Shown one piece after another: positions 3,825-24,849 of a stretch of 64,000 nucleotides of DNA (the stretch's first letter is position 1; the number at the start of each line of letters is the position of its first letter). Origin of the DNA: a virus; IMG/VR virus record IMGVR_UViG_3300025121_000013. One strand, 5' to 3'. The translations under genes were made by a program, and so were the position numbers. The notes under the pieces were generated by a model. That model had not been told where the DNA came from, made no database searches, and worked only from the letters and a program-made list of their open reading frames with translations.

Positions 3825-4067
3825 ATGAAAGTTTCAATTCATAAGCTGGAGAATCCTTCAAAGAAATCTGGAGATCGATATGTCTTTTCTGCAAAGTATT
3901 GTTGTATGAACATGTTTAATGCTCTTCAGAAAAATGACGGAGTTATAATGCTTCCTCTGTTGTATTCTGACTTCGATGTTGAAACATCATTGAACATGAC
4001 TTTAAGCGGCACTCCAATCTCTTTTTGTCCATTCTGTGGATCAGAGATTAGCTTTGTTAGAAAGTGA
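3825..4067 (+). CDS. Small phage protein, YCC..FCPFCG motif
   Basis: Recurrent phage Zn-finger pattern. Confidence 0.7.
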   Translation: MKVSIHKLENPSKKSGDRYVFSAKYCCMNMFNALQKNDGVIMLPLLYSDFDVETSLNMTLSGTPISFCPFCGSEISFVRK

Positions 4068-4652: not shown

Positions 4653-4931
4653 ATGAAAACTGGAGAATGGTCTGTGTACTTAGTTGAGTGCTCAGACCAT
4701 TCTCTATATTGTGGTATCACAAAAAATATAGAGAAAAGAATAAAAGCCCATAATAAAGGAAAGGGAGCAAAATACACAAGGATGAGAAGACCTGTAAAAT
4801 TAATTGAAGTCTGCTCAGATCTTGATTTATCTTTGGCTTTAAGAACTGAATATTATATCAAATCTTTAGAAAGAAAAAAGAAAGAACCTTTTTTAAGAAA
4901 TTTTAAAAAGAGAAAGGTAATTGTTAAATGA
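4653..4931 (+). CDS. GIY-YIG nuclease (UPF0213/YhbQ-like)
   Basis: VYLVECSDHSLYCGIT..R..HN.GKGAKYTR.RRPV. Confidence 0.92.
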   Translation: MKTGEWSVYLVECSDHSLYCGITKNIEKRIKAHNKGKGAKYTRMRRPVKLIEVCSDLDLSLALRTEYYIKSLERKKKEPFLRNFKKRKVIVK

Positions 4932-4952
4932 ATATTTGGGAGAAAATAAAAT

Positions 4953-5171
4953 ATGTTATCTATTAAATATATAGTCGAAAATATAGATATTGTAGAAAAG
5001 GCAATGATAAATCGAGGTAATTTGAAAGCTGTTAGTTTATTGCCTAAATTGTTAGAATTATATAATAAGAAAAAGAAACTTCAAATAGATCTTGAAACTC
5101 TTAGGTTCGAAAAAAATAAAAAAACAAAAGAAATGGCTTTATCAAAAAGGAAATTAAAAGAGGAAAAATAA
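4953..5171 (+). CDS. Stand-alone seryl-tRNA synthetase N-terminal-like coiled coil
   Basis: MLSIKYIVENIDIVEKAMINRG..LLELY..LRFEKN matches the SerRS N-terminal pattern; no catalytic domain follows. Confidence 0.7.
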   Translation: MLSIKYIVENIDIVEKAMINRGNLKAVSLLPKLLELYNKKKKLQIDLETLRFEKNKKTKEMALSKRKLKEEK

Positions 5172-18973: not shown

Positions 18974-19005
18974 AAAGAAGTCCTTTCTTTTTTTGTTTTG
19001 AAAAA

Positions 19006-19090
19006 TGCCGATGGAAGGATTCGAACCTTCATGATGGGAACTCACATCAGGGTGGCCAAGCCGAGCGTCTTCCATTTTCGCCACATCGGC
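19006..19090 (-). tRNA. tRNA-like gene (Leu-type scaffold) with non-canonical anticodon arm
   Basis: Perfect acceptor GCCGATG/CATCGGC, D arm, T arm and variable stem TGATG/CATCA; anticodon region too short and does not pair. Confidence 0.75.
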
Positions 19091-19096
19091 ATATGA

Positions 19097-20611: not shown

Positions 20612-21052
20612 TCACTCTTTTAAAAAATAATACGATAATATAGTATTATATACATGCCTATTTGGGGCGTAACGTTTAAAAAAGAATTGATCATCGCCAT
20701 TAAATATTTTTGAAATTGCGGCTGCGACTCCAGCGGATCTAGAAATTCCAGCATCGCATTGACATAATAAAAAATTATCTTCGTTTATAAAATCAAGTAT
20801 TGTTTTAGCTAAATTTTTATCAAAAAGAATTATTTTTCTTTTTAGTTTTTTCTCTATTTCTTCCTCATCAATTTTTTTCATTGGGTCTAGATCATCAAAA
20901 AATATTTGTAACATTCTTTGTCTAAATTTATTTTCAGGATATATTATATGTTTATCCCCAGGGGTCGAAATTGATATAATATCATGAGGAATTGAAATAT
21001 TATCTTCAGTTATTTTATTAACCTCTCTTCTCCCTAAAACTAAGATCTTCAT
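20612..21052 (-). CDS. Cys-dependent (PTP/DSP-like) phosphatase
   Basis: CDAGISRS (Cx5R), FDD, PN..V. Confidence 0.88.
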   Translation of the reverse strand: MKILVLGRREVNKITEDNISIPHDIISISTPGDKHIIYPENKFRQRMLQIFFDDLDPMKKIDEEEIEKKLKRKIILFDKNLAKTILDFINEDNFLLCQCDAGISRSAGVAAAISKIFNGDDQFFFKRYAPNRHVYNTILSYYFLKE

Positions 21053-21070: not shown

Positions 21071-21448
21071 TTAATTATTAAGTTCATGAATATGTATATC
21101 TATTTCTTTGTACCTAATTTTTTCTTTTCCATTTTTTAAAATATTTTTTGTTCCTTTCATAATTAAATACATTTGTTCATTTTTTGGGACATCGGGGTAT
21201 GTAAATTTATCAATTACATTACACCCACATGTCTTTGGCTCTTCAAATAAAATTAACTGTTTATTTTCGTCTAAAATATATATTGAATGATTATCATTTT
21301 CTCCGATCTTAAATTCAACTATTTCAATTCTTTTTTCAATTGAAGAAGAATTCTTCACCCTATAACCAGAGAGAGCATTATATTCCAAACTAAGAATCCC
21401 TAATACAAAAAATACAATCAAAACCTTAAAGATAAAACTTTTTGCCAT
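21071..21448 (-). CDS. Membrane-anchored or secreted protein
   Basis: N-terminal hydrophobic helix. Confidence 0.65.
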   Translation of the reverse strand: MAKSFIFKVLIVFFVLGILSLEYNALSGYRVKNSSSIEKRIEIVEFKIGENDNHSIYILDENKQLILFEEPKTCGCNVIDKFTYPDVPKNEQMYLIMKGTKNILKNGKEKIRYKEIDIHIHELNN

Positions 21449-21499
21449 CAGAGGCCGCCTTTCTTTTCAAAGATGAAAAACTATAGTTTTGAAATTAAT

Positions 21500-21574
21500 T
21501 GGAGCCGGTGGAGGGATTTGAACCCACGGCTTGCTGATTACAGATCAGCTGCTCTGCCACTGAGCTACACCGGC
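21500..21574 (-). tRNA. tRNA-Thr(TGT), U32/C33
   Basis: Anticodon loop TCTGTAA, CCA. Confidence 0.9.
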
Positions 21575-21582
21575 TCTTGACT

Positions 21583-22314
21583 CTATTTCACTGCCTTAAA
21601 TTCATTTAATGAATTCAATCGATATTTGACATTTGGAAGAAGGCCATCTTCTCCAATATAGCCAACTTTAATTCTTTTTCTATTATTTTTATAATAAGAT
21701 ATTTGAATTATTCCGCAATCTCCTGCGGTAGCAGTTCCGCAATATCCTGCGGTAGCGGTTCCGTAATCTCCTGCGGTAGCAGTTCCGCCATTTCCTGCGG
21801 TAGCGGTTCCGTCATCTCCTGCGGTAGCGGTTCCGCCATCTCCTGCGGTAGCGGTTCCGTCATCTCCTGCGGTAGCGGTTCCGCCATCTCCTGCGGTAGC
21901 GGTTCCGTTATCTCCTGCGGTAGCGATTCCGTTATCTCCTGCGGTAGCGATTTCATTGTCTCCGGCAACATAAGTCGCGCCAATGATCGGCTGACCATTT
22001 TTTACGAATTTCTTCATGAATTCTGTGGAATGAAAACGATCTCCGACAAAGAGAACCTTAACCTCTTCAGATTTTGCTTTCCCATCAAATTCAATGCAAG
22101 ATGTCGTTTGAAGAACAATCCATTTAGCGGTTAGATCCCAATTCAACCAAGAGGGGTTTCCTTGCCCATTCTTTAAAAAATAAAGTCCTCCAGTACATCT
22201 CGGATTAGGATCCCAATTTAAACACTTTACTTTTCCTTGCATTGGCCATTGAAAATTATCTCTAGAAATCATGTTTTCTGGGCATGTTCTTAACCCGTAG
22301 ATGTACTTCGGCAT
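21583..22314 (-). CDS. Octapeptide-repeat (TATAGDxG) beta-solenoid protein, ice-nucleation-like repeats
   Basis: 10 ATAG repeats between globular caps. Confidence 0.85.
   Translation of the reverse strand: MPKYIYGLRTCPENMISRDNFQWPMQGKVKCLNWDPNPRCTGGLYFLKNGQGNPSWLNWDLTAKWIVLQTTSCIEFDGKAKSEEVKVLFVGDRFHSTEFMKKFVKNGQPIIGATYVAGDNEIATAGDNGIATAGDNGTATAGDGGTATAGDDGTATAGDGGTATAGDDGTATAGNGGTATAGDYGTATAGYCGTATAGDCGIIQISYYKNNRKRIKVGYIGEDGLLPNVKYRLNSLNEFKAVK
21712..21966. repeat. 24-bp coding tandem repeat, ~10.5 units
   Basis: TCCTGCGGTAGCGGTTCCGxxATC units. Confidence 0.95.
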
Positions 22315-22368
22315 TCTCTTTCTCCCTTTAACGTATTCTTTAAAATATATATGTTCTATAAAAGTTAA

Positions 22369-23238
22369 TTAATCAATTAACTTTATTTTTTGTTTTTTAT
22401 TTAAAATACTTTGTATGATAATTCCTGTTAGATCATCCATAGTTAATTTTGAAGGATCATTCTCAGGAGAACTAATTAAATTTCTTCTATATATCCATCC
22501 GGGTTCAAGAGATGAAATTTTTGTAAAAATGTCATTCCCTCGAATATTTTTTAATGAGATTGTATATTTAATAAAATTATCTGTTAATTTAGAAATTAAA
22601 ATATCAGGATTATATAGTTTTCTAATTACCGGCATTATGCCATAAAATTCACTTGAGATTTGACATATTTTTATATTTTGTTCTTTGATAACAATTGTAT
22701 TTTTTAACGCATAGGGTCTTAAAATACTTTTATATTTTTTCTTAATTGAGGCGAACATTTCAAATCCAGATATTGAACTAAAAACATCTTGTTCTTCATC
22801 AATGATTCTTCGTAAAACATAAAGCCCTTTTTCAAATGCCATTTTATTATCATTTTTATATTTTATTAATACTCCAGAAATTATATCAGTCAACATGGGA
22901 AATTTAACTTTTCCATAATTCGTAAAACCTCTTGGACCTTTTGTCTCAAGAATATTTATATATTCTACAATATCTTTAAGATGTTTTGGGCATCCTTTAT
23001 ATTTCCACGCTTGCATTGAAGCGGTTTCAGTAATTCCATTTCCATGATGATCCCAACAATTTAAATCTGTTCGTCCAGAATATTCATGTGTGCATTCTAT
23101 GCAACAAATTTCTTTATCTAAAATATCTTTTGTAGGAACTTTATTTGAAAAAATAATTTTATTATGATCTTGGAGTTCAAGACAAATGTATGTAATTAAA
23201 ACATCCAAGTCTATCTTTTTCGAAACATAGATATACAT
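22369..23238 (-). CDS. Divergent DHH-like phosphoesterase (putative)
   Basis: N-terminal IDLD and CWDHHG motifs; C-terminal DHHA1-like region. Confidence 0.55.
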   Translation of the reverse strand: MYIYVSKKIDLDVLITYICLELQDHNKIIFSNKVPTKDILDKEICCIECTHEYSGRTDLNCWDHHGNGITETASMQAWKYKGCPKHLKDIVEYINILETKGPRGFTNYGKVKFPMLTDIISGVLIKYKNDNKMAFEKGLYVLRRIIDEEQDVFSSISGFEMFASIKKKYKSILRPYALKNTIVIKEQNIKICQISSEFYGIMPVIRKLYNPDILISKLTDNFIKYTISLKNIRGNDIFTKISSLEPGWIYRRNLISSPENDPSKLTMDDLTGIIIQSILNKKQKIKLID

Positions 23239-23265
23239 AACATACCTCTTCTCGTTAAAGATTCT

Positions 23266-23405
23266 TTTTTGACATACCCGTTGTTTCTTCCATTGAGGTA
23301 TACAACGGGAAAAATACCTATGTTTGGCCCAGGGAATTAAGAGGAAGTGATGGGAGGCTTAATCCCCTGACAGATGGAAGACCCTGCTACATGAACATCC
23401 TCCCT
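23266..23405 (-). ncRNA. Pseudoknotted RNA motif, copy 2
   Basis: See findings; five complementary pairs conserved with copy 1. Confidence 0.75.
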
Positions 23406-23413
23406 AATTTTGA

Positions 23414-23546
23414 TTTTTGACATACCCGTTGTTTCTTCCATTGAGGTATACAACGGGAAAAATACCTTTAGGATAGGGAATCAAGAATTCGTCTTGGGAG
23501 GCTTGATTCCCTTCAGATGGAAGACCCTGGCCATGTGTTCCTCCCT
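23414..23546 (-). ncRNA. Pseudoknotted RNA motif, copy 1
   Basis: 148-bp offset; 54-bp identical block; covarying stem. Confidence 0.75.
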
Positions 23547-23612
23547 TAGATTTTTAAAGTTTTCTTTTTTTTCTAAATTGATTAGAAATAAAAAAAATAA
23601 AATTCAACCTTT

Positions 23613-23635
23613 CTCATTTATTAATATATATAGTT
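23613..23635 (-). promoter_or_regulatory. Putative early promoter
   Basis: Identical 23-mer. Confidence 0.75.
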
Positions 23636-23671
23636 AATAAAAGAAAAATTAAAAGAATCTATAAATATGAA

Positions 23672-23686
23672 AGAACAAATTTAAAA
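23672..23686 (+). promoter_or_regulatory. Putative late promoter motif
   Basis: AGAACAAATTTAAAA. Confidence 0.55.
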
Positions 23687-23713
23687 TTGGAATATATTTA
23701 AGAAAGGAAAAAT

Positions 23714-24310
23714 ATGGATAGGGGATATTTTAATAAAGAAGATTATAAAAAATGGTTGGATAAAATAGAAAAAATTTTACAAAAAAATATGACGGAAAGA
23801 GGATTTTTATTTTGGAAAGGCTTGAATGAAAAAATTCCAATGATATGGCATAGACCAGTTTCTTCATCTTTTAAATATCATCAAAAAGAAGATCTTAGAA
23901 TTCCAACAATTGCTGAACATGTTTTTGAAATGATATATGCGGCAGTTCCTATTTTAGGAAGTATAAATATAAAATCAAAAACAGAAGATTGTGACACTAT
24001 TCTTTTAGCTATTCTTTTACATGATGGTTTTAAATATGGAAAAACTCCTGACGAATCTAAATTTACAAATAAGCAACATGATAGAATTGTAGCAGATTTT
24101 ATAGGAAAAAATAAATTGATTTTTGAACAATTATTTCAAAGCTCTAAAATTGAAATATTAGAAGAAATTGTTAGGTATCATTCTGGACCGTGGTCTCCTG
24201 ATGCTAAAAAAGATTTTTGTTTTTCAAATGTTCATCCGTATGTGATGTTTGTTCATTTATTAGATAATTTAAGTTGTAAAAATTTGTTAAAAAATGGAGA
24301 ATATGAATGA
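23714..24310 (+). CDS. HD-domain phosphohydrolase
   Basis: YH..EHV..LLHDGFK..H..YHSG..LD. Confidence 0.85.
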   Translation: MDRGYFNKEDYKKWLDKIEKILQKNMTERGFLFWKGLNEKIPMIWHRPVSSSFKYHQKEDLRIPTIAEHVFEMIYAAVPILGSINIKSKTEDCDTILLAILLHDGFKYGKTPDESKFTNKQHDRIVADFIGKNKLIFEQLFQSSKIEILEEIVRYHSGPWSPDAKKDFCFSNVHPYVMFVHLLDNLSCKNLLKNGEYE

Positions 24311-24849
24311 AAATAATTTCTTATAAAAACTTGTTAAAAGAATTAGTTATTTTAAAAGAAAGTATTCCGTGGAGAAATGGAAAGGTTCCTATTGACATAG
24401 GCGAAACTTCTATGGAAGGGTTAAAACAAAAATGTATAGTTTTAAATAATTTATCATACTTTCACTTAAAACCAAGCTTTATGATTATATTCCCATCTTT
24501 AGACCCTTTAAAAGAAATTGGTGGGGGAACCAATGGATTTATCATTGCATCTCCTGAAGCACAATATTTAGAATATAGAAAAATAGAATCTGGATTATGT
24601 TATGCAAAAACTTATTTTTGGGGCAGGCCAAAACGTGATAGATTTTTAGATCTTTTAGATCGTCTATCTGAAAGAGGTTTTTCCTTAGAAAATTTTTCAA
24701 ATTTAAAATCTTTTGATAAGGATGTAAAATTAAATCTTTCTGTTGATAGAAATCAATTATTGATAACGTTAGGAGGCTTTAGAGAAAATCCAGAATTAAA
24801 AGATAAGAACATAATAAAAATTAACACAAGAATCTCAAGGATAAGATAA
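24307..24849 (+). CDS. Hypothetical protein
   Basis: ATGA coupling. Confidence 0.7.
   Translation: MKIISYKNLLKELVILKESIPWRNGKVPIDIGETSMEGLKQKCIVLNNLSYFHLKPSFMIIFPSLDPLKEIGGGTNGFIIASPEAQYLEYRKIESGLCYAKTYFWGRPKRDRFLDLLDRLSERGFSLENFSNLKSFDKDVKLNLSVDRNQLLITLGGFRENPELKDKNIIKINTRISRIR

Follow-up and report, generated by a model that had tools for sequence, protein, structure and literature searches.

A tandem, predicted doubly pseudoknotted RNA in the leader of a phage gene for a DHH-superfamily protein

In the tisB +42 mRNA of E. coli, an H-type pseudoknot near the 5' end and a single-stranded stretch lie far upstream of the ribosome-binding site (RBS), with S1 and the 30S subunit as proposed partners. 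As described in PMC7708055, S1 binds H-type pseudoknots, and pseudoknot and single strand together anchor 30S at a standby site about 100 nt from the RBS. S1 has also been reported to unfold a riboswitch pseudoknot in part (PMC7038950), and the account of the IGR IRES in bacteria describes a translation that is S1-dependent and for which the pseudoknots are dispensable (PMC9458429). The S1 proteins of huge phages have been proposed to redirect initiation (PMC7162821). The preQ1-III riboswitch, about 100 nt in length, is described as containing five helices, two pseudoknots, an anti-Shine-Dalgarno (anti-SD) pairing and U-A-U triples (PMC11625349). In phage T4 the leader pseudoknot that serves as the gene 32 operator lies directly upstream of the gene and is reported to be bound by its own ssDNA-binding product (PMC535899, PMC10690425), and the ToxI, CptI and TenpI RNAs, together with phage pseudo-ToxI, are presented as tandem H-type pseudoknots placed after a promoter and separated by A-rich linkers (PMC5086642, PMC12283969).

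Here we describe a tandem RNA element of a giant groundwater phage, in a stretch of 64,000 nucleotides of virus DNA (the window) from IMG/VR record IMGVR_UViG_3300025121_000013, a linear record of 139 kb that is about 45% complete and has a GC content of 29.5%. Tail-sheath and other virion genes lie on the plus strand, and the minus strand carries a long unit of small genes with six tRNAs. The five-helix element heads this minus-strand unit, and its GC content is 44%, against 14-26% around it. The features to which we refer are the following (window positions unless the record is named).

23409..23548, minus strand: copy 1, predicted three-way junction with an 8-bp closing helix and arms of 11 bp and 6 bp
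23261..23406, minus strand: copy 2, same predicted fold with a 12-bp arm
23414..23467 and 23266-23319, minus strand: 54-nt core, identical in both copies, its own unitig at double depth
23239..23252, minus strand: RBS of the 289-aa gene, GAGGU 5 nt before the AUG, resembling the 5' end of copy 2
22369..23238, minus strand: gene for a 289-aa DHH-superfamily protein of an unnamed family, the next gene after the element
23547..23613, minus strand: U-rich, then A-rich stretch of low GC between promoter-like motif and copy 1, candidate S1/30S standby region
23614..23633, minus strand: promoter-like motif with a CTATATATATTAA core, putative and likely transcript start for the element
23714..24310, plus strand: divergent HD-domain gene (PF01966), a neighbour outside the element
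1-1069 of the record (L521 2-1069), minus strand: truncated gene for a multi-domain S1 protein, GC-rich coding sequence, after a DnaJ-like zinc-finger ORF

A preliminary description of this DNA had proposed five complementary pairings, and all five were found in both copies where it had placed them. The unit is about 140 bases long and occurs twice in tandem. In copy 1, GGGAGG (23545-23540) is complementary to CCUCCC (23501-23496), the long arm is an 11-bp stem (23512-23502/23485-23475), the closing helix joins UCUUCCAU (23524-23517) to AUGGAAGA (23441-23434), AGGUAU (23467-23462) with AUACCU (23449-23444) makes up the 6-bp short arm, and CCCGUUGU (23457-23450), in the loop of that arm, is complementary to ACAACGGG (23432-23425). 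Copy 2 uses the same strands between 23404 and 23277, with a stem of 12 bp. In its clearest depiction the fold forms a three-way junction, UCUUCCAU/AUGGAAGA being the closing helix, with one arm of 11-12 bp and another of 6 bp, in which the 5' flank GGGAGG is predicted to pair with the long-arm loop and the 3' flank ACAACGGG with the short-arm loop. An equivalent drawing consists of two H-type pseudoknots with unspaced stems, joined by a loop-loop helix. The linker lengths of 4, 7-10 and 2 nt suggest that all helices can form simultaneously. The 54-nt core contains the 3' pseudoknot with its UUUU loop, the loop-loop strand and an AUG one base past the last stem. The reported spacing of 148 bp holds for this 3' core, whereas 144 nt separate the 11-bp stems and 141 nt the 5' ends. 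CAUG could form a sixth pairing with the UAUG that follows the last stem; this pairing is kept in both copies and adds only 0.3-1.2 kcal/mol, and a CAG/CUG hairpin around the loop-loop strand (-1.4) was too weak to count.

The nearest functional analogue of the element is probably the tisB standby pseudoknot or the preQ1-III switch, the element itself being a member of neither. The tisB leader as described has one simple pseudoknot, whereas here two are cross-linked, duplicated and built with SD and anti-SD strands; nor was an antisense RNA, as in the tisB account (PMC7708055), seen here. With preQ1-III as described, the element shares five helices, two pseudoknots, an SD-pairing loop and a U-rich loop placed for U-A-U triples, but it has another strand order, a longer unit, a duplication, no queuosine gene downstream and no Rfam match, and in the preferred fold its anti-SD is predicted to be paired upstream (PMC11625349). 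The T4 gene 32 leader differs, according to the published accounts (PMC535899, PMC10690425), in having a single pseudoknot bound by the product of its own gene, whereas the product here has a DHH fold. Compared with the described ToxI, CptI and TenpI systems (PMC5086642, PMC12283969), the terminator and the ToxN-like gene are absent, and the units are much larger and cross-linked.

The fold is not readily obtained by chance. A full descriptor (two H-type pseudoknots plus the loop-loop helix) matched 0 of 3000 dinucleotide shuffles of each copy, and its only matches in the 139-kb record were the two copies; in 2.33 Mb made up of 120 stretches from 13 related phage records it gave three weaker matches, unlike the element in sequence. 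Differences between the copies fall at 3 of 78 paired positions, all of which keep the pair, and at 16 of 54 unpaired ones (3 of 42 and 16 of 36 when the identical 54-nt core is left out); the Fisher test for the full set (p 6e-5) is descriptive, since the helices were defined from the same two sequences. In the four helices included in the count, both copies form all 33 pairs, 31 of them without change. The compensatory change claimed earlier is there, one pair going from C-G to U-A on both sides and one A-U becoming G-U on one side, and the minus strand is favored, as had been argued, because the change to G-U would leave a mismatch if the plus strand were the RNA. With two paralogs and one true double change, the pattern is suggestive rather than proof of covariation, and a shuffle control of pair conservation (248/500) is uninformative with two rows. 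Folding restricted to nested pairs did not stand out (region, z -1.1; single copies, -1.6 and -0.9), because two of the five helices are pseudoknots that such folding leaves unscored. The junction core lies within the nested minimum-energy fold of copy 1 and amounts to -27 kcal/mol in both copies.

The tandem arrangement is genuine and no product of assembly: in other groundwater runs, contigs end at the 54-nt core, where depth is about twice that of the flanks (24 against 10-13 in X1 and X5, which are possibly the source samples), and junction pieces of the duplication are also present in runs X9-X11. Only one variant is listed within the element: two samples carry a one-base insertion in the A-run separating the copies. 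We regard the element as real, and as a predicted doubly pseudoknotted RNA known from one genome.

The statement that it is no known riboswitch or ribozyme was borne out, as an Rfam covariance search of the window returned six tRNAs only; for 23150-23750 the best Rfam match had an E of 0.3 at half the threshold, with no family even at E 10. A covariance model, R1, was built from the two copies only, and blank searches therefore do not show absence. R1 gave a single match of 18.8 bits, lacking the motif strands, in 47 related phage records, and zero matches in 5 + 151 cellular genomes. Exact-pattern scans of viral contigs yielded 25, 83, 26 and 20 loci and no homolog, the best covariance score among the sets of 26 and 20 being 15.4 bits; a metagenome scan covering 28 of 64 parts (119 loci) likewise gave no homolog, with a best nhmmer E of 0.07 among the matches listed. 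Blastn of the element against INPHARED and PLSDB gave zero matches. The leader accompanies none of 41 loci with DHH homologs (38 cellular, 3 phage), and a structure-only descriptor matched 0 of 82 flanks and none of the 3 phage DHH loci; it matched five times in the 38 cellular loci, where three among the matches listed are GC-rich sequence of L324. None of three motifs occurs in six of nine supplement files of a catalogue of 10,006 viral structured RNAs (PMC10690425). Among the sequencing runs listed as carrying the element there was no RNA run, and the literature searched held no description of a five-helix RNA of this kind or of a phage riboswitch for cyclic oligoadenylates. The element is confined to one locus in the 139 kb of the record, and since the nearest phages compared show only about 45% identity in a virion protein, the RNA family may exist unseen. 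As no homolog was found, covariation rests on two paralogs and there is no gene association.

Other structured stretches were seen in related phages. In L195, GC-rich and hairpin-rich stretches (3860-3975 and 4890-5050, the same in L194) flank a DHH homolog; they are unrelated to the element in sequence and are possibly another structured leader. L461 (G045) has three adjacent tiny units, each with the promoter motif, a strong SD, a short GC-rich ORF and a hairpin, and L076 (14782-14833, also L406) has a strong nested, pseudoknot-capable GC-rich intergenic element that is non-homologous.

The CTATATATATTAA motif lies about 70 nt upstream of the element in sense orientation. It has six exact copies in the 139-kb record, all intergenic and one of them at the S1 operon, and 60 matches (overlaps not removed) in the 2.33 Mb of the 13 related phage records. 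Because it recurs at intergenic sites and in related records, it is likely a phage promoter; thus the "early promoter" assigned to this place stands insofar as a recurrent motif is present, but the site has no sigma-70 match. GC is 14% over 23547-23713. The U-rich stretch at 23547..23613 folds no better than shuffles (z -1.1) and is not specific, since similar stretches follow other copies of the promoter motif; the full five-helix fold occurs in none of the other 71 promoter-motif leaders examined. Between the element and the 289-aa gene no terminator-like site was found (minus strand, 21400-24400). On the other side, the HD gene had been linked to the element, and this link did not hold: a related phage (L026/L027) keeps the HD gene in the same place ahead of virion genes and lacks the RNA. 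The HD gene belongs to the virion module, travels with it, and was ruled out as the partner of the element. Further along the minus-strand unit lie a 243-aa ORF with ten 8-residue repeats (21583-22314, phrog_18079), which is its second gene, an ORF resembling dual-specificity phosphatases by a weak DSPc match (20612-21052), and, adjoining tRNA-Leu, a tRNA-like gene with an irregular anticodon loop (19005-19091; ARAGORN "ggcc", Rfam 37 bits).

At the head of each copy stands a strong SD followed at the usual distance by an AUG, which in both lies 5-6 nt past GGGAGG although the spacer sequence differs; both pseudoknots use SD-like or anti-SD-like strands. The head AUG of copy 1 (23534) starts a frame of 17 codons, whereas that of copy 2 (23392) is followed at once by UAG; a conserved peptide was ruled out on this ground, and also because the one-base insertion allele in the linker (two samples) shifts a 28-codon frame. 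At its head, copy 2 is similar to the start region of the 289-aa gene (1 of 150 other start regions is as similar), whereas copy 1 shows no such likeness there (126 of 150 controls score as well). One base past the last stem, each copy also has an AUG (23423-23405 and 23275-23255, minus strand). In copy 2, and likewise in copy 1 of the insertion allele, this AUG starts a 6-codon frame whose stop lies at the next SD or immediately ahead of it, a layout that would be suitable for translational coupling.

As first noticed in the preliminary description, the AUACCUC loop of copy 2 (23301-23295) has its complement, GAGGUAU (23248-23242), in the RBS of the 289-aa gene. This match is partly trivial, since the SD core supplies five of its seven bases and the record contains the heptamer 11 times; moreover, only copy 2 has an in-register SD partner and copy 1 has no equivalent. 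The duplex of AUACCUC with the gene SD (-7.8 kcal/mol) is nevertheless stronger than the competing helix with its partner inside the unit (-4.9 kcal/mol), so that a translational switch is structurally possible. At the level of nested cores, in which the pseudoknot helices are unscored, the junction state is at -27.3 and the SD-closed state at -20.9 kcal/mol, and the RBS of the gene is paired in the nested minimum-energy fold and free in the five-helix model. The element is situated in a 5' leader with a competing helix able to occlude the SD, a mark of translational riboswitches that is independent of class, and an H-type pseudoknot with a nearby single-stranded stretch, the mark of an S1 standby site of the tisB or rpsO type, is present upstream of the RBS. 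The head SD with its AUG, the phage S1 and the type III CRISPR link of the gene family did not figure in the preliminary description.

We hypothesize that the tandem copies are a cis-acting leader for translational control of the DHH-family gene, a reading that is tentative and to which we assign a probability of roughly 0.4. It is consistent with the sense position behind the promoter motif and with the uninterrupted path to the 289-aa gene, free of a terminator. On this view the RBS of the gene would stay accessible while the RNA is compact and would become blocked once the RNA opens. Transcription reaches the upstream partner first, and the junction core is the stabler state (-27 against -21 kcal/mol, nested); the default co-transcriptional fold would therefore hide the anti-SD loop, and it would also bury the decoy SD that heads each copy. 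Opening of the short arm would then free AUACCUC to close the SD of the gene. The pseudoknots and the U/A-rich stretch are likely a landing site for S1 and 30S, as in tisB, and the duplication would double that site. S1, which can partly unfold pseudoknots and is encoded by the phage, would be the most likely trigger to shift the balance. The phage S1 ORF has four S1 domains in 356 codons at the end of the record, behind a CTATATATATTAA motif. In 13 related records, most of them incomplete, S1 was found in 0 of 13 and the element in none; the S1 link rests on a single co-occurrence in one genome. Within the proposed model, S1 as a recruiter and S1 as an unfolder act in opposing directions. That the knots might be matched to the S1 of the phage itself, giving it a translation gate of its own, is a further idea that we consider unlikely.

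The preliminary assignment of the next gene as DHH-like is upheld by the predicted fold of its product (TM 0.63-0.69 to DHH/DHHA1 clusters), for which our own structure model reached a pLDDT of 94. Searches of the 289-aa protein against Pfam, PHROG and NCBIfam gave zero matches, and PDB chain searches with sequence profiles of the DHH family gave nothing significant. The protein has 103 distant relatives, two of which are CARF fusions. It keeps the metal motifs KxDxD and DHH (K8, D10, D12, D63, H64, H65), but has lost 9 of 30 family-conserved columns, against 0-5 in 53 of 54 other members, and both glycine motifs are replaced (GG at 50-51, WGG at 248-250); its substrate may therefore differ. 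Neighbours were counted at the 27 of 38 cellular DHH loci that were annotated, with 123 of 162 neighbouring ORFs scanned: 12 of the 27 have Cas10, RAMP, Cas1, Cas6, CARF or CARF-like RtcR neighbours (Cas10 or RAMP in five of the 12), and 15 have none of these. Lon-CARF genes stand beside the family in L317, L319 and L321, with TraT following in two of the three, and RtcR-type sigma-54 activators do so in L318, L329 and L340, where Cas10/RAMP adjoin in two of the three.

A CorA-associated DHH nuclease, which we take to be NrN, occurs in type III CRISPR loci. Like this nuclease and the cOA-degrading nuclease MAD, as far as they are described, our protein is predicted to have a DHH fold and belongs to a family whose members occur next to CARF and Cas genes or as fusions with them; the family differs in having Lon-CARF, RtcR-sigma54 and CARF-HD neighbours, and the phage copy in the loss of both glycine pairs. 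No CorA was found among the 123 scanned neighbours of DHH-family genes. DHH enzymes that degrade type III messengers, or are linked to them, have been described (PMC8284326, 10.1101/270033), and an account of ring nucleases expects further families (PMC12409355). From sequence and context, the 289-aa protein is a candidate signal-degrading or signal-sponging anti-CRISPR.

Much of the evidence above can also be read in other ways. The compact, self-contained fold with A-rich boundaries would suit a stand-alone small RNA, cut at the A-rich linkers and acting in trans as a sponge or decoy, for instance for host S1, which the phage S1 would then replace, or for a host nuclease; tandem amplification suits titration, six tRNA genes follow on the same strand, and S1-bearing huge phages are proposed to redirect initiation (PMC7162821). 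We find this rather unlikely, since the units have no terminator-like site after them and number only two, and since the SD and anti-SD content and the 28-nt distance to the SD fit a role in cis. A tandem ligand riboswitch, in which binding of a nucleotide would hold the RNA in its compact state, sequester the anti-SD and switch on the DHH enzyme, would account for the topology, which is like that of preQ1-III as described (PMC11625349). It would also make use of the UUUU loop lying across a stem with U-A pairs, where triples might form, and of the 54-nt core kept identical between the copies. The natural candidate for the ligand would be a type III CRISPR messenger or its breakdown product, given the Cas, CARF or RtcR neighbours at 12 of 27 cellular loci and the two CARF fusions. 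A riboswitch class usually accompanies its gene family, and here Rfam is blank and no copy stands upstream of the 41 homologs or in the cellular genomes searched; nearly all conserved bases are Watson-Crick paired, which leaves few for a pocket, and without both glycine pairs the phage protein may act on another substrate. A ligand riboswitch is accordingly improbable. That the knot binds the messenger or its linear product, and turns on translation of a DHH enzyme, captured by the phage, that degrades or sequesters this signal, is highly improbable.

Three further readings dispense with regulation of the gene by its leader, or replace it. A nuclease-resistant knot might passively guard the 5' end of the early transcript, tRNAs included, which fits its place at the start of a long unit on the same strand that includes six tRNA genes, and the locking of both flanks into loops. 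Such a stabiliser leaves the SD-AUG retained at the head of each copy unexplained, and the full fold is missing from the other 71 promoter-motif leaders, so that we think it quite unlikely. Just as unlikely is a mobile or selfish RNA module, possibly catalytic, inserted at a gene start and then duplicated to no benefit of the phage: the 5' end of copy 2 is like the gene start, as after target duplication (1/150 controls as good), and the distribution is patchy, with absence from all relatives searched, but the module occupies one locus only in 139 kb, the duplicated start is itself part of a helix, the start of copy 1 is unlike the gene start (126/150) and no known ribozyme family matches. HDV-like/theta, twister and pistol ribozymes gave no Rfam match; compared by eye, the strand order of the element presumably differs from the nested double pseudoknot of HDV-like ribozymes. 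Least probable of all is an antitoxin of a type III toxin-antitoxin system or a pseudo-ToxI decoy. Tandem H-type pseudoknots, A-rich linkers like the sites cut by ToxN/AbiQ, and the described precedent of phage pseudo-ToxI (PMC5086642) speak for it; against it, no terminator separates repeats and gene, Rfam has no match, the units are cross-linked double knots rather than short single ones, and the gene product has a predicted DHH fold (TM 0.63 to a DHH cluster) with no Pfam match, and is not a ToxN, CptN or TenpN. A CsrA sponge was rejected, as most GGA triplets lie inside stems (by eye), and so was a mimic of CRISPR repeats, with no Rfam CRISPR-repeat match and no likeness by eye to the two arrays found.

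In conclusion, a duplicated three-way junction with both loops knotted to its own flanks is absent from Rfam and from the literature searched, and the element is an uncatalogued fold of a known functional kind, short enough for synthesis and direct probing. It leads the gene for a phage-borne, remodelled member of a DHH family linked to type III CRISPR, a protein that is itself an anti-CRISPR candidate. If the element is a gate worked by S1, the S1 proteins of huge phages would have a first concrete RNA target; their role, in the account available (PMC7162821), is only proposed. If the element is instead a sensor of CRISPR messengers, it would represent both a new riboswitch class and a new anti-CRISPR strategy.
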